DNA from: a virus
Taxonomy: Duplodnaviria; Heunggongvirae; Uroviricota; Caudoviricetes
Reading direction: 5' to 3' (one strand)
Virus record (IMG/VR): IMGVR_UViG_3300020201_000012
Span: 64,001-104,223 of that record
Length of the DNA: 40,223 nucleotides
Positions 1 to 25,261 of this stretch are shown here, piece by piece. Position 1 is the first letter of the stretch; every line of letters begins with the position of its first letter. The notes under the pieces were generated by a model. The model saw nothing but the letters and a program-made list of their open reading frames with translations, ran no database searches and was not told the DNA's origin. A program made the position numbers and the translations under genes.

Positions 1-129
1 TAAATATAAAAATAAGTTAGTAGCACAATACGGTCTAGATGCAGTTACTGCAATCTGTGAGTTATCCACAGCCCCAGAGAAGATAACAGATGAATATATA
101 AGAAATATAATAAAAACCTATAAAAGTAC

Positions 130-157
130 TTGACAAATATTATATGCGGTGTATAAT
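130..157 (+). promoter_or_regulatory. sigma70-type promoter for the TROVE/DUF2828 gene
   Basis: TTGACA (130-135), 16 nt, TATAAT (152-157). Confidence 0.75.
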
Positions 158-218
158 TATAAGTGAGCAGTTATGCTATAATAATATTGATAAATTCAAC
201 AAAGAGGATAGCCAACCC

Positions 219-1721
219 ATGAGTTTTATAAACGAACTTCAAACTAGTACTAATAAAACCGCACGTACCGAAAACGGTGCTGTGTCTAACACATCTACAC
301 TTGACCCAGTTTTAGATTTTTTTTCTAAGGCTGGGGCTATGCGTGGAAGAGAAGTAGAGGCATTTAGTCTTTTCCAAAAGGCTTTCGATGCTCACCCGCA
401 GAACGCAATTCGTGTTTTGTTCTACCTACGAGATATTCGTGGTGGACAAGGCGAGCGTTCTGTTTTTAGTTATATACTTGATCAGCTCGATGAAGATTTT
501 GTAGCCAAGATTGCACATTACATACCTGAATACGGTCGCTGGGACGAGGTGCCACTAAATGATGCTACAGCCGAAATAATCAGTCACCAATTAAGTGAAG
601 ACTTCAAACATATGGAAGAAGGATTATCTATTTCGCTTCTAGCCAAGTGGATGCCGTCTGAAAATGCCGGTAAAGCTTCTTTTAAGGATGCTCGTAAGTT
701 AGCTAAACTATTGGGTTGGGTTGGTAATCCAATCGAAATCAAAACAGTGGGCGTAGATGAAAATGGTGGTGAAGTAGAAACTATCAAGAGAATACCTAAC
801 CTTGCACCGTATCGTCGCAATGTTGTCAAGCTTCGTAAATATTACGAAAATTTCTTAGAACACTTAATGAGTGAAAAGCGTTGGGGCGAAATAGATTATT
901 CTAAGCTGCCGTCGCAGGCTCACAAAAAGCACGTTAAAGCCTTCTTCAGGAATGATGAAACTCGATATAAAGCCTACCTAGACTCAGTGACAAAAGGTGA
1001 AGCCAAGATCAACGCTGGCACACTGTTCGCCTACCAGCTGTATGACATGGTTGCTGGCTATAGGGCTACTGATGATGAGAAGAAAGCCGCTAATGCTCTA
1101 TGGGCAAATTTGCCAGACTACACAAGAGGGCAGAACGCACTTGTTTTAGCTGATGTATCTGGTTCTATGGCTGGCTTTCCTATGAGTGTCAGTGTTTCAC
1201 TGGCACTATACTTCGCCGAACGCAACGAGGGTCAGTTTAAGGACTATTTCATGACGTTCACTTCACAGTCACGTTTACAGAAGATTTCCGGTGATACTTT
1301 GGAAGCTAAGATGCGTTCGATTGAAACCGCTAACTGGGATATGGGCACCAACTTACAGTCTGCTTTCGATGCGATATTAAAGGCGGCACGAGACGGAAAT
1401 GCTACACCAGATGAAATGCCATCTACTTTGTACATCATCTCAGATATGCAGTTCGACGAAGCGACTGCAAGAAATGATAAAACTAATTTCGAAGTTATAG
1501 CTGAGAAGTTCAAGACTGCTGGTTACGAGCTACCACATGTGGTGTTCTGGAACTGTAGCGCTTACGGCAAGGATTCACCAGCAACGGTATATGATGAGAG
1601 GGTCACATTGATCTCAGGCTCTAACCAGAGTGCATTTCAGTATGCAGTTGAAGGTAAAACCCCGATGCAGAGCATGCTTGATATTCTTAACTCAGATAGA
1701 TACGCGGGTATAGTAATATAA
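219..1721 (+). CDS. Ro60-like TROVE + vWA protein (DUF2828-type)
   Basis: Motifs TENGA, LDFF, RDIRGGQGER, PEYGRWD, AKWMP, INAGTL, MIDAS-like DVSGSM, ISDMQFD, VVFWN. Start moved to ATG 219 because the track start (144) lies inside the promoter. Confidence 0.85.
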   Translation: MSFINELQTSTNKTARTENGAVSNTSTLDPVLDFFSKAGAMRGREVEAFSLFQKAFDAHPQNAIRVLFYLRDIRGGQGERSVFSYILDQLDEDFVAKIAHYIPEYGRWDEVPLNDATAEIISHQLSEDFKHMEEGLSISLLAKWMPSENAGKASFKDARKLAKLLGWVGNPIEIKTVGVDENGGEVETIKRIPNLAPYRRNVVKLRKYYENFLEHLMSEKRWGEIDYSKLPSQAHKKHVKAFFRNDETRYKAYLDSVTKGEAKINAGTLFAYQLYDMVAGYRATDDEKKAANALWANLPDYTRGQNALVLADVSGSMAGFPMSVSVSLALYFAERNEGQFKDYFMTFTSQSRLQKISGDTLEAKMRSIETANWDMGTNLQSAFDAILKAARDGNATPDEMPSTLYIISDMQFDEATARNDKTNFEVIAEKFKTAGYELPHVVFWNCSAYGKDSPATVYDERVTLISGSNQSAFQYAVEGKTPMQSMLDILNSDRYAGIVI

Positions 1722-1728
1722 AAAGTAC

Positions 1729-1757
1729 TTGACATTTAAAACTCGGTAGAGTATAAT
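1729..1757 (+). promoter_or_regulatory. consensus sigma70 promoter driving the ncRNA array
   Basis: TTGACA (1729-1734), 17 nt, TATAAT (1752-1757); no convincing ORF before the terminator at 2344. Confidence 0.85.
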
Positions 1758-1764
1758 TACAGTG

Positions 1765-1821
1765 TAGGGTTTAACAGCAATAAAAAAACAATCGCCTTGA
1801 ATGCAATTTAAATAACCCTAG
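1765..1821 (+). ncRNA. Y-like RNA unit 1 (closing stem, ACAGCAA, anticodon-like hairpin)
   Basis: TAGGGTT (1765-1771) pairs with AACCCTA (1814-1820); ACAGCAA follows the 5' strand; internal ATCGC-CTTGAAT-GCAAT; ends in CTAG. Confidence 0.6.
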
Positions 1822-1837
1822 TTTTTAGAAAAAATAT

Positions 1838-1930
1838 TAGACAGAAACAGCAAACCATATCGCCAGCAATGGCTCTACCAGGAACGGTTAGGTAGCTCCG
1901 TATAAAAAAAAGCCACCACAAACTGTCTAG
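1838..1930 (+). ncRNA. Y-like RNA unit 2
   Basis: TAGACAG (1838-1844) pairs with CTGTCTA (1923-1929); ACAGCAA; GCCA-GCAA-TGGC GNRA hairpin; CTACC/GGTAG stem with a D-loop-like AACGGTTA loop; ends in CTAG. Confidence 0.6.
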
Positions 1931-1945
1931 AATAGAAAAAGCCTG

Positions 1946-2056
1946 TAGGGGCTTCCAGCAAATACACAATCCACTGTAAATGGAGAGGTCGCAGGTTCAA
2001 ATCCTGTCAGGGCTTGCCCTGTAGCTCAGCGGTTAGAGCGCTATTAAAGCCCCTAG
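1946..2056 (+). ncRNA. Y-like RNA unit 3 containing a circularly permuted tRNA-like domain (GUA anticodon loop)
   Basis: TAGGGGCTT pairs with AAGCCCCTA (9 bp); CCAGCAA; then anticodon arm 1969-1985, AGGTC, T arm 1991-2007, loop-closed acceptor stem 2008-2021, D arm 2024-2039. Confidence 0.8.
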
Positions 2057-2144
2057 TATATAGATTATGGCCGCTGAGGCATTCGCCCTTATAAGGTGTT
2101 ATAAGACAATCACGGTTGCCATTGTCTATATTAAATCACAATAC

Positions 2145-2230
2145 AGAGCTATACAGCAACTAAAAATATTGGTTCGATTCCAATCTTCTCTTCGGATAAG
2201 ATGCCCTAACGGTAGGGGCACTAGCTCTAG
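2145..2230 (+). ncRNA. Y-like RNA unit 4 (YrlA-like T arm, capped acceptor, D arm)
   Basis: AGAGCTA pairs with TAGCTCT (2222-2228); ACAGCAA; ATTGG-TTCGATT-CCAAT; CTTCTC-TTCG-GATAAG; GCCC-TAACGGTAG-GGGC; ends in CTAG. Confidence 0.75.
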
Positions 2231-2235
2231 ATCAT

Positions 2236-2338
2236 TAGACACAAACAGCAAAAATACATATACTTTCTCGAAAGAGTCACAGTAGTACTATCGGTGATAT
2301 GGCTATCCCCCTGAATCGTACATTCCAAAAGTGTCTAG
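2236..2338 (+). ncRNA. Y-like RNA unit 5
   Basis: TAGACAC (2236-2242) pairs with GTGTCTA (2331-2337); ACAGCAA; internal CATAT/ATATG, ACTT-TCTCGAAA-GAGT and TCAC/GTGA stems; ends in CTAG. Confidence 0.6.
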
Positions 2339-2343
2339 CAAAG

Positions 2344-2365
2344 AACCTCCTTCGGGGGGTTTTTT
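2344..2365 (+). terminator. intrinsic terminator closing the ncRNA array
   Basis: AACCTCC-TTCG-GGGGGTT followed by a T run. Confidence 0.85.
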
Positions 2366-2876: not shown

Positions 2877-3842
2877 ATGAGCCTTAATTATAAGTGGTCT
2901 TTCTCTGACTACCCGTCTAAGAAAAACGGCTTTACCGTAATGTCCACTTTTGCTTGTGGTGGTGGTAGCTCAATGGGTTATAAGCTGGCTGGGTTTGATG
3001 TAGTCGCCGCTAATGATATAGACCCACAAATGGCAGAGGTATACATACAGAATCATAATCCTAAGCAGTTTTTTGAGTGTAGTGTTACTGATCTTAAAGA
3101 CAGAAACGATCTTCCAGAAGTAGACATCCTTGATGGTAGCCCGCCGTGTTCTGTATTTAGTATTGCTGGACTGGGAAAGAAAGTCTGGGGTAAGAGTAAG
3201 AAGTTTAGAGAAGGACAAGCAGAGCAAGTACTTGATGACTTATTTTTTGAGTTTGAGAAATTAGCTCGAAAAATGAACCCTAAAGTAGTTGTGGCAGAGA
3301 ATGTCAAGTCTATGCTTCACGGTAAAGCTAGAAAATATGCAGAAGAATATTGCCGTCGAATGAATAGATCTGGTTACACAACTCAGGTATTTGTTCTAGA
3401 CGGGTCAAAGATGGGTCTTCCGCAGAAACGAGAAAGAGTATTTTTTATATCTAATAGACTCGGCAAGAAGTTAAGTCTCGAGTTTAACGACACCTTAGTC
3501 AAGTTTAGAGAAATAAGCGATGACACAGACACGGCTACAAATCTATCGCCACTCTATCAAGAGTACTGGAATAAGGCAGTAGAGGGCGAAGCAGTCGGTA
3601 AGTTCGATGCTCGTAGGAAGCTATGGATAGACAGACCCTCTAGAACGGTGACAGCAAGTGGAGCTAACTTTCACCCTTTATACCCCAGAACTATAAACTT
3701 TAAAGAAGAGCTCCTTCTATCTTCGTTTCCTCAAGATTATGATTTTACCGGAGTTAAGCCAACATACCTAATGGGCATGAGTGTCCCACCTTTAATGATG
3801 GCTCGTGTTGCCAAAGAAATACAAAAACAACTACTATCATGA
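2877..3842 (+). CDS. DNA (cytosine-5)-methyltransferase
   Basis: FACGGG motif I, catalytic GSPPCS, ENV motif VI, QKRER motif VIII. Confidence 0.9.
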   Translation: MSLNYKWSFSDYPSKKNGFTVMSTFACGGGSSMGYKLAGFDVVAANDIDPQMAEVYIQNHNPKQFFECSVTDLKDRNDLPEVDILDGSPPCSVFSIAGLGKKVWGKSKKFREGQAEQVLDDLFFEFEKLARKMNPKVVVAENVKSMLHGKARKYAEEYCRRMNRSGYTTQVFVLDGSKMGLPQKRERVFFISNRLGKKLSLEFNDTLVKFREISDDTDTATNLSPLYQEYWNKAVEGEAVGKFDARRKLWIDRPSRTVTASGANFHPLYPRTINFKEELLLSSFPQDYDFTGVKPTYLMGMSVPPLMMARVAKEIQKQLLS

Positions 3843-5275
3843 CACCAGATTTAACTATATCAGAGGTTCAAAACCTCGCAATGCAAGAGTTTAACAACCC
3901 TCAGACTGTTTCGATCGTTTTCGGGGGTGGGGCAGGTGGTGGAAAATCTTTTCTACTAGGTTTACTAACTGCGATCGCCGCCAAACAATACCCAAGAACT
4001 CGTTGGGGTCTTGCCCGTAAAGAGCTGAAGAGTTTAAAGCAGACAACCCTAGCCACTCTCATCGGTAAGGTTCACCCAGTTCTCGGCATCACAGAACACG
4101 ATTATAAATTAAATCTTCAAGATTCAACAATAGAATACTCGAATGGTTCAGAAATACTTCTACTTGACTTAACTGCAAAGCCATCCGACCCAGAAATGGA
4201 GTCCTTGGGTAGTTTAGAGTTAACCGGTGCATTCGTAGATGAGGTAGGAGAGGTTAATAAAAAAGCTTATGACATATTATCCTCTCGTGTCAATCGTTGG
4301 CTGAATAAAGAATATGGTATTACTGGAAAAGTAGTCGGAAGTTGCAACCCAAGCCCCGGATTCGTTCGCCAAGATTATTATGATAAATATGAAAAACTAG
4401 GTTCAGGTAGAATACAGCGTTGGGCTAATGGTCATGTATGGGTAAATGGTGAGCGCAAGACAGCTTATAGCGTCTATATTCGCTCTACAGTGCTTGATAA
4501 CCCTTTTATAGATGATAACTATATCGAAAACCTTAAAAGAATGCCGCCACAAGAAAAGAAACGTCTACTGGACGGCGATTGGAACTATCTAGACGAAGAT
4601 GATTCATTGTTCTCTATGAAGCTCATAGATAAGATAACAGTTTACGAAAGACCCGAAGTATTAAGAAACGATGAAGGTGAATTAGTAGACGAATTTGGAA
4701 AATTGAAGAAGTTTAATAAGTATATAGGTGTCGACCCTTCAGACTCAGGAAAAGATTCTACTGTTATTACTTTAGTAAACGAGGGAATCATAACCGATCA
4801 ATTTGAAGTTAAGTCACCAGTAGGTAAAGATGATGCTATTGGTTTCTTTATCGCGGGCAAACTTATTGCTTTCGCGGAAAAAAATGGTTTCACTAAACAC
4901 TTAGCTAGAAATATAACTATAGAAGGAAACGGAATTGGTGCCAGTTTAAGGGACTCACTAAGAGTGATGGGTTGGAACGTACAAGTGTACATGGCTACGC
5001 TTCAAACTCGCAATGATGGATTTTATGAGTTTATGGTAAACGCTGATGAAGGAAAGATTAAGATTCTTTATGAAGTGATAGAAGCTGGTAACCTACTCAG
5101 ACAGCTCACAGCGCACCGATACGACCTAGACACGGGTAAACCTCGCATTACTAAGAAAAAAGAGCTTAGAAAGCTTCTAGGGCGGTCTCCCGACCATGCT
5201 GACTCGGCTATGATAGCTAACATGGCGTCCAACAAGATGAAACCCAAAAATATAAGTTCTTATATAAGGTGGTAA
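3839..5275 (+). CDS. terL: terminase large subunit
   Basis: Walker A GGGAGGGKS, Walker B FVDEVGE, DNPF motif, RNase H-like GVDPS...D and C-terminal SPDHADS. Confidence 0.9.
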   Translation: MTPDLTISEVQNLAMQEFNNPQTVSIVFGGGAGGGKSFLLGLLTAIAAKQYPRTRWGLARKELKSLKQTTLATLIGKVHPVLGITEHDYKLNLQDSTIEYSNGSEILLLDLTAKPSDPEMESLGSLELTGAFVDEVGEVNKKAYDILSSRVNRWLNKEYGITGKVVGSCNPSPGFVRQDYYDKYEKLGSGRIQRWANGHVWVNGERKTAYSVYIRSTVLDNPFIDDNYIENLKRMPPQEKKRLLDGDWNYLDEDDSLFSMKLIDKITVYERPEVLRNDEGELVDEFGKLKKFNKYIGVDPSDSGKDSTVITLVNEGIITDQFEVKSPVGKDDAIGFFIAGKLIAFAEKNGFTKHLARNITIEGNGIGASLRDSLRVMGWNVQVYMATLQTRNDGFYEFMVNADEGKIKILYEVIEAGNLLRQLTAHRYDLDTGKPRITKKKELRKLLGRSPDHADSAMIANMASNKMKPKNISSYIRW

Positions 5276-5276
5276 T

Positions 5277-6296
5277 ATGGCTTTCGTAGCAGACACTAAG
5301 GTATTATCGAAATCTGGATGGAAACTTATAGGTGAAATATCTGGGCAAGATCAAATACTGGTACGCAACTTTTTAGGTGATGCTCAGTTTTCACAACCGT
5401 TTGCTATTAGAAAAAAGCAGCATGACGGAATAGTGTTGGCTGGCGGTTCGGACCACTACAGCTTTGAAGTTACGCCTGATCACAAAATAATATATACGAA
5501 CGATAAAGGCAAGCAGTTTGAGTCTAACGCTAGAGACGTGCCTTCCGGAAAAAGAACTTTACTACACCACCGGTCAAGATACTATCCGCAAGATGATTTT
5601 TTTAAACAATTTGTAAAAACAGGTAGCTCTATTAGGGGTGTTGAAGCGGTTGACTGGTATAAGCTAGTGGGATATATGCTAAAGAAGGGTTTAGTTGATA
5701 AAAAGAAAGATAGACTTTTCTTGTATGTAGATAAAGACAACCCCGAGAAAGATATGAATATTATTTGCGGCGTATTAGATAATATCGGGTTAGAGTGGAC
5801 GTTTGTTAAGCCAAAAACCATCGTAGTGTCTCAGAAATCTAATATAGCTAATAAGCTCGCTATTGCTCTAGGCTCTAGAAGTAGAAGAAGTATGTATATA
5901 CCCAGCAAGATGATTAACAACAGCACTACAGAGTACGCCACAGCGCTGATTGAGACGTTTATTCGTGCATCTAGAAAAGATGGTCAGGGTGTCGAAAAGA
6001 CCCTACAGTTTTCAACCTCAAATATGAAACTCATAAAAAGTATGGAGGTATTAGGTTTACTATCAGGATACACGATTAGCAACCGGTTAGTAAAACCCGC
6101 GGGGTCTAAAGTTCCAAGAGGGTTCACAAAAAGGGATTCTCATGTAGTTTATGTGAGGAAGTCGGTAAACGAAGTAAGCATAACGTCCAAAAAAGAAAAA
6201 CAATATTCAGGAAGCGTCTACGAGATAGATATATTCGAAGGTCAGGTCATAACAAAAATAGAAGGGTCTTTGCCAGTATGGATGCAACCGAAATGA
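5277..6296 (+). CDS. free-standing intein-like Hint + LAGLIDADG protein, catalytically degenerate
   Basis: AFVADTKVLSKSGWKLI (block A with Ala in place of Cys1), VTPDH (block B), YSGSVYEIDI (block F), no terminal His-Asn; the two LAGLIDADG helices lack acidic residues. Confidence 0.7.
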   Translation: MAFVADTKVLSKSGWKLIGEISGQDQILVRNFLGDAQFSQPFAIRKKQHDGIVLAGGSDHYSFEVTPDHKIIYTNDKGKQFESNARDVPSGKRTLLHHRSRYYPQDDFFKQFVKTGSSIRGVEAVDWYKLVGYMLKKGLVDKKKDRLFLYVDKDNPEKDMNIICGVLDNIGLEWTFVKPKTIVVSQKSNIANKLAIALGSRSRRSMYIPSKMINNSTTEYATALIETFIRASRKDGQGVEKTLQFSTSNMKLIKSMEVLGLLSGYTISNRLVKPAGSKVPRGFTKRDSHVVYVRKSVNEVSITSKKEKQYSGSVYEIDIFEGQVITKIEGSLPVWMQPK

Positions 6297-25032: not shown

Positions 25033-25261
25033 CCAGAAAATAACTTGCCCTAATTGTGAGCATCAGTTTGCTTGGGGTGACGCAGCAATTAGTGAACAGC
25101 AGAAGGCTATACTGATTCTTAATGCACACGGACACTCCATAAGAGGTATCGGGCGTATGATGAATCTCGCCCCTGAAAGTGTGAGATACCGTATTAAAGA
25201 AGCAAATCGTTGTAAGTTTGTAGCATCCAAAGTGAAGGAGAAAGATGGCTCAGATGAGTAA
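25025..25261 (+). CDS. Zn-ribbon plus helix-turn-helix DNA-binding protein
   Basis: CPNC; HGHSIRGIGRMMNLAPESVRYRIK HTH pattern. Confidence 0.6.
   Translation: MSSQKITCPNCEHQFAWGDAAISEQQKAILILNAHGHSIRGIGRMMNLAPESVRYRIKEANRCKFVASKVKEKDGSDE

Follow-up and report, generated by a model that had tools for sequence, protein, structure and literature searches.

A gene of the DUF2828 family in a tailed phage is directly followed by an array of five small RNA units, which share one terminal handle, and gene and array together are likely to represent a second, apparently unpublished lineage of the Ro/Y-RNA particle. Ro60 with its Y RNAs is a long-studied and still poorly understood RNA-surveillance particle. 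The stretch of DNA analysed, here called the window, comprises 40,223 nucleotides (nt) and makes up the final 40 kb of a viral record that is complete at 104,223 base pairs (bp) (IMGVR_UViG_3300020201_000012, positions 64,001 to 104,223). The same DNA recurs in public microbial-mat and freshwater DNA metagenome runs, and a search of public runs turned up no RNA run containing it. Positions refer to the window unless they are given as genome positions. The locus is composed as follows:

130-157, + strand: promoter of the Ro-like gene, TTGACA-16-TATAAT, 12/12 match to the sigma-70 consensus
219-1721, + strand: gene with DUF2828 and DUF7788, 500 amino acids (aa); start at 219 fixed by homolog alignments
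1729-1757, + strand: promoter of the RNA array, TTGACA-17-TATAAT, 12/12 match to the sigma-70 consensus
1765-1821, + strand: unit 1, 57 nt; stem 1765-1771/1814-1820, ACAGCAA 1774-1780, terminal G1821
1838-1930, + strand: unit 2, 93 nt; stem 1838-1844/1923-1929, ACAGCAA 1847-1853
1946-2056, + strand: unit 3, 111 nt; stem 1946-1954/2047-2055, CCAGCAA 1955-1961
2061-2128, + strand: structured element without handle; 10-bp closing stem UAGAUUAUGG/CCAUUGUCUA with one mismatch
2144-2230, + strand: unit 4, 87 nt; stem 2145-2151/2222-2228, ACAGCAA 2153-2159
2236-2338, + strand: unit 5, 103 nt; stem 2236-2242/2331-2337, ACAGCAA 2245-2251
2344-2366, + strand: intrinsic terminator of the array; hairpin CCUCC-UUCG-GGGGG at 2346-2359, then a U run

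The array begins 44 nt past the stop codon of the DUF2828 gene on the same strand, and the approximately 580 nt between its promoter and its terminator hold no credible open reading frame (ORF). An earlier note, made from the letters of the window, had described a consensus promoter and a UUCG terminator bracketing five stem-closed units, and both signals are borne out by the complete hexamer match and by the hairpin with its T run. The five units are likewise present where they had been placed, with the start of unit 4 corrected to 2144; its first pair, C2144.A2229, is mismatched. In each unit the closing stem is perfect and 7-9 bp long, (A/C)CAGCAA comes 0-2 nt after its 5' strand, and the end is CTAG. 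Within the whole family described below, the handle consists of a stem of 7-9 bp whose third pair is invariantly G:C, the sequence CAGCAA 7-8 nt past that G and one unpaired 3' G. The CTAG end seen in the window is the local form of a family-wide C-Y-N-G.

This array is real and lies far beyond chance, because the cluster of motif and stem is unique in the genome and because a model built from other phages returns exactly the five units as its best matches. The 104-kb genome has 30 copies of the motif (A/C)CAGCAA on its + strand and 17 on its - strand. Only five of these copies are combined with a short-range stem of at least 7 bp, and all five lie within 580 nt. The covariance model, R1, was made from 62 short units, all of them taken from other phages so that no sequence of the window entered it, and was run over the whole 40 kb on both strands without filters. 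Its best five matches are the five units with exact ends (E 2e-5, 3e-5, 8e-4, 0.2 and 0.2), and the sixth-best match in the window has an E value of 1.9. The lower scores of two units were ascribed to their inserts, taken to be the longest of the array.

The same handle is found beside DUF2828 genes in other phages and in prokaryote genomes, and here a strong preference for the strand of the gene was observed. The viral set comprised 84 loci with homologs that are 36-76% identical to the window protein. A loose scan, defined as a stem of at least 7 bp followed by CAGCAA, yielded 284 units on the gene strand versus 70 on the opposite strand, and six scrambled control motifs gave 19-66 per strand. 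A strict scan, which adds the G:C third pair and a G three bases after that C, left 205 versus 7 handles. CAGCAA lies exactly 7 or 8 nt past the conserved G in 175 of 193 distinct units. The units are found close to the gene, 166 of 189 within 1 kb, on either side of it (104 upstream, 85 downstream) and with one to eight units per locus. Furthermore, a second, independent set of 80 loci was taken from prokaryote genomes, among them Clostridia, Synergistota, Mycolicibacterium and contigs from Saccharibacteria or archaeal bins; it gave 103 R1 matches at E<=0.01 in about 56 loci, with 103 on the gene strand versus 0 on the other. Taken together, handles accompany the DUF2828 gene in most of the roughly 160 loci checked, by pattern scan in the viral set and by covariance model, as the earlier note had suggested, in the prokaryote set, and the strand-specific genomic linkage of RNA and protein is demonstrated by them. 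In mycobacteriophage Faith1, for example, where the identity of the protein is 46%, the 'Ro-like' gene is directly followed by three units and a terminator; the stems of these units begin with UGG and end with CCA-G, versus UAG and CUA-G in the window. A run of R1 on three whole bacterial genomes carrying the gene gave no match and is uninformative, as 150 of thousands of candidates were scored and the E value scales with genome size.

The stem itself covaries. The earlier note had pointed to covariation among the stems of the one genome, and this is confirmed in an alignment of the 62 units from other phages. Double-sided changes occur at six of the seven stem pairs and amount to 124 cells versus 38 in column shuffles, the third pair being the invariant G:C. 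If the 3' strand is slid by 1-3 columns, pairing falls to 24-42% of the cells. Sequence context is conserved to a lesser degree: an A precedes CAGCAA in 118 of 193 units, a U follows it in 108 of 193, and the 3' side of the insert is A-rich.

Among the ORFs flanking the viral loci (n=143) no common protein family was found, the commonest being an HNH endonuclease (11/143). Since no protein neighbour is conserved, the RNAs are the only constant neighbour of the DUF2828 gene. This bears on a different explanation, namely that the handle RNAs are autonomous small RNAs of phages, for example tRNA decoys or processing modules, which lie near the gene only because both belong to an 'RNA island' of the phage, and which have their handle bound by another factor. 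The units are indeed often located among tRNA genes: in phage wV8 matches lie between tRNAs, and at one of the viral loci (L008) a tRNA array lies downstream. Moreover, in the case of phage Bas63 the Ro60-like protein was active although no phage RNAs had been added (bioRxiv 10.1101/2024.10.10.617714). In the present phage, however, the array directly follows the gene, yet the 24 tRNA genes identified by ARAGORN (genome 24092-36364) are about 30 kb away; ARAGORN detects no tRNA gene in the window and none within 30 kb of the array. The linkage also spans mycobacteriophages, proteobacterial phages, Clostridia genomes and archaeal-binned contigs, and the one-sided strand count in the prokaryote loci, the short distance to the gene and the missing conserved neighbour as an alternative binder all argue for a partnership with the DUF2828 protein. 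An autonomous origin of the RNAs is hence regarded as unlikely.

The protein supports a relation to Ro60 on the level of its fold. Within the 500-aa product, Pfam detects PF11443 (DUF2828, E 1.4e-33), PF25043 (DUF7788, E 3.5e-41) and weak vWA matches; TROVE (PF05731) was not found in a search up to E<=0.1, and the Ro60 chains of the PDB were reached neither by phmmer with the single sequence nor by a profile of 80 sequences. The protein matches PHROG 850, 'RNA-binding protein', with an E value of 8e-131, and mycobacteriophage homologs with 46-47% identity carry the annotation 'Ro-like RNA binding protein'. An AlphaFold2 model was built from the 80-sequence alignment, with a mean predicted local distance difference test score (pLDDT) of 92.6 and a predicted template modelling score (pTM) of 0.91. 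Searched with Foldseek against the PDB, the first twelve matches of this model are all Ro60 or TROVE structures. With VIA-align, Xenopus Ro60 (2I91) is matched at Z 22.9 and a root-mean-square deviation of 4.0 Å over 402 residues spanning 9-488, followed by the Thermus phage Ro60 (Z 14), Deinococcus Rsr (Z 12.7) and then, at about Z 10, matches to the vWA part only. The best matches among the Swiss-Prot models of the AlphaFold Database are the Ro60 proteins of Deinococcus, mouse and human, telomerase p80 and TEP1, all of them TROVE proteins, and a search of the clusters of that database returned DUF2828/DUF7788 proteins. Within the vWA part, the DxSxS signature of the metal ion-dependent adhesion site (MIDAS; D312, S314, S316) is invariant across the 80 homologs. 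According to the model, the protein is a Ro60-fold ring, i.e., a HEAT-repeat ring plus vWA/MIDAS, and constitutes a sequence family separate from TROVE. The designation as a TROVE-vWA gene in the earlier note is thus correct for the fold and does not hold for the sequence. The family is large, with homologs in 695 sequenced phages, among them Felix O1-type, Listeria, Staphylococcus and mycobacterial phages, and with 6,073 clusters at 50% identity.

What the handles enclose differs from unit to unit. Unit 3 (R1 E 0.21 with exact ends, fold z -2.2) contains a full cloverleaf in circularly permuted order: an anticodon-like arm at 1970-1984 with the loop CUGUAAA, a variable stretch, the T arm at 1991-2007, an acceptor hairpin at 2008-2021 closed by UU, the dinucleotide UA and the D arm at 2024-2039. 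The handle is placed at the point where tRNA positions 26 and 27 would join. Unit 4 (R1 14.7 bits, E 0.2, exact ends; fold z -1.9) has a T arm at 2168-2184, an acceptor-like hairpin at 2185-2200 closed by UUCG and a D arm at 2203-2219, and lacks an anticodon arm; read from the sequence, this layout is the topology of YrlA. No meaningful match to this cargo was found in the other loci. A homolog of unit 3 with the same stem is present in the locus L004, the 76%-identical relative, and its anticodon-like loop differs.

The cargos of the remaining units are of another kind. Unit 1 (29.6 bits, E 3.3e-5, 7-bp stem perfect) encloses an A-rich insert, in which a weak hairpin (loop CUUGAAU) is the most that resembles an anticodon arm; the unit is a minimal one of the size class that is predominant in the family. 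Unit 2 (24.2 bits, E 8e-4; fold z -2.25) carries at 1856-1922 small hairpins, of which one resembles a D arm, as well as a GCCACCA stretch, and is not clearly tRNA-like. In front of this stretch a helix of 4-5 bp with UGGCU may form, an arrangement that recalls an acceptor stem with discriminator and CCA; no homolog of the cargo occurs among the 84 viral loci, so that the CCA-like reading is without comparative support. Unit 5 (30.5 bits, E 2.1e-5) encloses two hairpins that are not tRNA-like. In L004 its 3' hairpin is kept (5437-5468, 94% identity over 33 nt), and of its first, 5' hairpin the hairpin is retained with a different sequence. The claim that each unit encloses a different tRNA-like cargo consequently applies to units 3 and 4 and not to units 1, 2 and 5.

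In the gap between units 3 and 4 lies the handle-less element 2061-2128, with a minimum free energy of -26.2 kcal/mol (z -3.6; none of 200 shuffles reached this stability). Its stem starts with UAGA and ends with UCUA like a handle stem, and it has neither CAGCAA nor the terminal 3' G. R1 does not match it, and no homolog was found in the other loci. It could be a decayed unit or an RNA of a different partner, and its membership in the system is uncertain. The array of L004, the closest relative, is built from six handle units and two long handle-less spacers (4797-4927, about 130 nt, and 5043-5285, about 240 nt), which may hold further RNAs.

Across the family the insert ranges from about 25 to more than 200 nt. 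Short units of 40-75 nt, which have no tRNA-like core, account for 121 of 193, and a T-loop motif is present in 36 of 72 long units. The hairpins of the short units show 7-nt loops in 37 of 95 cases versus 5.5 in shuffles, and 19 anticodon-like loops (U at position 2, purine at position 6) were counted in the 121 short units versus 0.6 in shuffles. Mimicry of tRNA parts is thus a real tendency in the family, not a rule. The idea of anticodon decoys was kept as a hypothesis only, as a minority of units is concerned and no triplet identity dominates. Together with the strand-specific linkage in the two sets of loci and the covarying stem, this range of inserts bears out, across the family, the architecture postulated in the earlier note, a constant handle with a variable module; the interpretation given there is supported, with the corrections named here.

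Two known RNA classes have to be considered for units 3 and 4, and the first is YrlA. In this case the units would simply belong to the YrlA/Y RNA family and be bound as in classical Ro60, with nothing new about them. The Rfam model YrlA (RF02553) does match unit 3 partially, with 38.8 bits at model positions 24-84 (window 1984-2042), and the relatives L004 and L008 reach 45.9 and 48.3 bits; the order of T arm, closed acceptor and D arm is the same. All these scores are, however, below the gathering score of 69, and only the tRNA-like core is aligned: nothing in the window aligns with model positions 1-23 and 85-114, and the flanking helix of L008 aligns with many non-pairs. In addition, the many short units without a tRNA-like core do not fit this family, the protein is not TROVE by sequence, and the published catalogue of Y RNAs beside bacterial Ro60 genes came from a search restricted to TROVE-annotated genomes (Chen et al., PMC4201824). 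It is therefore very improbable that the units are ordinary YrlA RNAs, and the statement of the earlier note that the handle does not resemble the classical Ro-binding helix agrees with the restricted alignment.

The second class is tRNA itself. Units 3 and 4 could be permuted or decayed tRNA genes, which are either processed to working tRNAs or are pseudogenes, with the flanks as processing signals. The Rfam tRNA model gives a match of 29 bits, equal to its threshold, at 1942-2011, where it pairs sequence upstream of unit 3 with the 3' strand of the acceptor; unit 3 has a Tyr-like GUA loop in a phage that has no tRNA-Tyr, and the phage encodes a CCA-adding enzyme. Nevertheless, ARAGORN does not recognise a tRNA here, the acceptor helix is closed by a 2-nt or a UUCG loop, and neither a discriminator nor CCA is present. 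The homologous unit of L004 displays a different anticodon-like loop on the same handle, three units of the array have no tRNA features, and the handle is kept across hundreds of units with unrelated cargo. A tRNA gene, working or decayed, is accordingly a most improbable explanation, and the family-wide handle with its DUF2828 partner is preferred. In the Rfam/Infernal check named in the earlier note, YrlA stays below and tRNA only reaches its threshold; Rfam 15 has no family that matches the CAGCAA handle, and no published description of CAGCAA-handle RNAs was found in open-access full text. No match was obtained when the nucleotide sequence of the array was compared with 50,697 phage records.

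The known bacterial systems share the general design. In classical bacterial Ro60 loci the Y RNAs are encoded on the strand of the Ro60 gene and no more than 4 kb away from it (PMC4201824), and here as well a ring protein with a vWA part is accompanied by small RNAs within a few kb on the same strand. YrlA likewise combines a terminal protein-binding stem with a permuted tRNA mimic of T arm, loop-closed acceptor and D arm, as seen in units 3 and 4. In contrast, the protein described here belongs to DUF2828/DUF7788, the handle is defined by (A)CAGCAA and the invariant G:C pair instead of a CGAA-type bulged helix, and the units form arrays of up to eight with mostly small hairpins as cargo, scoring below the RF02553 threshold.

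A phage precedent is the Ro60 protein of Thermus phage phiLo (PDB 9KOP, 9L5Y), which binds two upstream Y-like RNAs as well as the host PNPase in vitro and, together with its RNAs, dampens PNPase (PMC12135203). It has the same fold (the match at Z 14 mentioned above), its partner RNAs are encoded beside the gene, and a role against host defence has been proposed for it as well. In contrast to the DUF2828 system, which is known here from sequence and model, the phiLo protein is recognised as a homolog of Ro60, its RNAs Yrl1 and Yrl2 carry the CGAA motif, and binding was shown.

Also comparable is gp130 of the Felix O1-type phage Bas63, for which a Ro60-like structure, a position directly upstream of a tRNA array and an activity against the Ppl defence have been reported (bioRxiv 10.1101/2024.10.10.617714). 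The same PhageMaP preprint suggests that some of the Bas63 'tRNA genes' may be Y RNAs, and identifies no RNAs. Felix O1-type phages contain a 34%-identical DUF2828 homolog upstream of a tRNA array, with weak handle matches between the tRNAs; gp130 is only a candidate equivalent of this homolog and has the same gene position. For the term 'candidate new system' used in the earlier note this means that the handle RNAs appear to be new, whereas for the Bas63 protein a likeness to Ro60 and possible partner Y RNAs had already been suggested.

A further similarity concerns the Class I RNAs of Dictyostelia. These are RNAs of 42-65 nt with a 6-bp covarying terminal stem, a conserved 5' G paired with C and a short UG(U) tail (PMC7919456), and they were searched for with the pattern GTTGRCCTTACAGCAA ... 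GTCAACTG (PMC5054030). The 11-nt motif is CCUUACAGCAA in D. discoideum, and the end is CUGU; the Class I RNAs were reported as unique to dictyostelids, and their known binder is the RRM protein Rnp1A (PMC7919456). According to the published descriptions, on which this comparison is based exclusively, both groups have an unstructured motif ending in ACAGCAA right after the 5' strand and a variable remainder. They differ in that the Class I RNAs are eukaryotic and have a DUSE promoter, whereas the array has a sigma-70 promoter in a phage from a microbial mat metagenome; the Class I motif is 11 nt long and the first four bases differ, the tails differ, and G and CAGCAA are 10 nt apart versus 7-8 nt here. 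That both are RNAs of the same kind, with DUF2828-type Ro-like proteins, which also exist in eukaryotes, as the common partner, is considered quite unlikely. If true, it would imply an ancient second Ro/Y-RNA system across kingdoms, in which the phage versions show exchangeable baits in the shape of tRNA or anticodon arms.

The proposed particle is regarded as likely, and its mode of action is pictured as follows. The array would be transcribed from its own strong promoter to yield five small RNAs. The transcription start is predicted from the promoter spacing and probably lies at about 1764-1765, identical to the 5' end of unit 1, since this is approximately 7 nt after the -10 hexamer and thus at the usual spacing. 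All other ends would require processing within the short A/U-rich spacers. The handle, composed of the terminal stem with its G:C pair, the single-stranded (A)CAGCAA, the A-rich 3' side and the unpaired 3' G, would be the binding site of the protein, and the RNAs would serve the DUF2828 protein as Y RNAs serve Ro60. The variable insert would act as effector module, with units 3 and 4 imitating the body of a tRNA, and since they do so it is proposed that the particle presents tRNA-shaped surfaces to tRNA-recognising enzymes. Production of the RNAs, their processing into units, binding of the handle, the effector role of the inserts and the function of the particle are what we infer, and for handle binding and inserts the basis is the fold, the order of the genes and Ro60 with its Y RNAs as a precedent. 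During infection, such a particle might engage tRNA- or RNA-directed enzymes of host or phage (nucleases, repair or modification enzymes, exoribonucleases) as decoy or adaptor. Most likely it would serve counter-defence or RNA maintenance; that it works as a decoy is a tentative suggestion. The presence of an RlaP-type nucleotidyltransferase and of a CCA-adding enzyme in the same phage was counted in support of the particle.

Several points weigh against this interpretation. No TROVE sequence homology is detectable in the protein and the handle is without a CGAA-type Ro-binding motif, so that the analogy to Ro and Y RNAs rests on fold and gene order. The cargos of three of the five units (1, 2 and 5) are not tRNA-like, and the whole fold of unit 1 is not more stable than that of shuffled sequence. 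In the 62-unit alignment 99% of the cells in the seven stem pairs are paired, a fraction that is inflated because the units were ascertained by a scan that requires pairing; the variety of pair types (for pair 1, UA 28, AU 23 and GC 5) and the strand asymmetry are independent of this ascertainment. Finally, the Bas63 protein alone, supplied from a plasmid or inside T7, countered Ppl (bioRxiv 10.1101/2024.10.10.617714), and because it sufficed alone the counteraction of Ppl may not need the RNAs.

Bacterial and phage versions of Ro60 have been catalogued only for TROVE-annotated proteins, and most DUF2828 genes are annotated as hypothetical. The pairing of DUF2828 with the RNAs would give these genes a testable function, and it would account for numerous intergenic stretches of phage genomes that seem empty or pass for an 'aberrant tRNA'. 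A single handle combined with many cargos would furthermore represent a natural modular scaffold to study tRNA mimicry by phages versus host defences or RNA repair. The window is a clean example for this, since its array is isolated between a consensus promoter and a terminator and the vicinity is free of tRNA genes.

Other explanations and matches were discarded. Repeats of a type III toxin-antitoxin system, a retron RNA and a CRISPR array were judged from anatomy alone: the vicinity lacks an endoribonuclease toxin, a reverse transcriptase and a cas gene, and the array is not one of direct repeats. When the whole genome was scanned for handles with looser criteria, chance matches came up. The most handle-like of them, at 25073-25175 (7-bp stem, GCAGCAA, 3' G) was judged to be due to chance, as it coincides with an apparent small helix-turn-helix frame and is absent from the R1 matches; the frame was read by eye, and no ORF of at least 80 aa overlaps there.

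Concerning the surroundings of the locus, the gene downstream of the array begins at 2392 with its own -10 element and is followed by genes for a C5 cytosine DNA methylase and the large terminase (2877-5275), which overlap by 4 nt. Both promoters of the locus share the extended context AAAAGTACTTGACA (122-157 and 1721-1757), a third copy of which is located at genome 42449-42471; promoters with this context are probably a phage-specific class of strong promoters. Among the ORFs flanking the viral loci, RNA-repair neighbours are occasionally seen, namely a cREC_REC cyclic-phosphate-processing receiver domain (L003 2478-2921), one RtcB and one SpoU methylase. Of the 24 tRNAs of the phage, one has an odd anticodon loop, and none is for Tyr, His or Ala. 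A cluster of genes for RNA-end enzymes is situated 6-10 kb upstream of the DUF2828 gene (genome 54378-58167; L086 378-4167) and contains the RlaP-type nucleotidyltransferase, a 309-aa protein of an unknown family, a weak 3'-5' exoribonuclease-like match and the CCA-adding enzyme.

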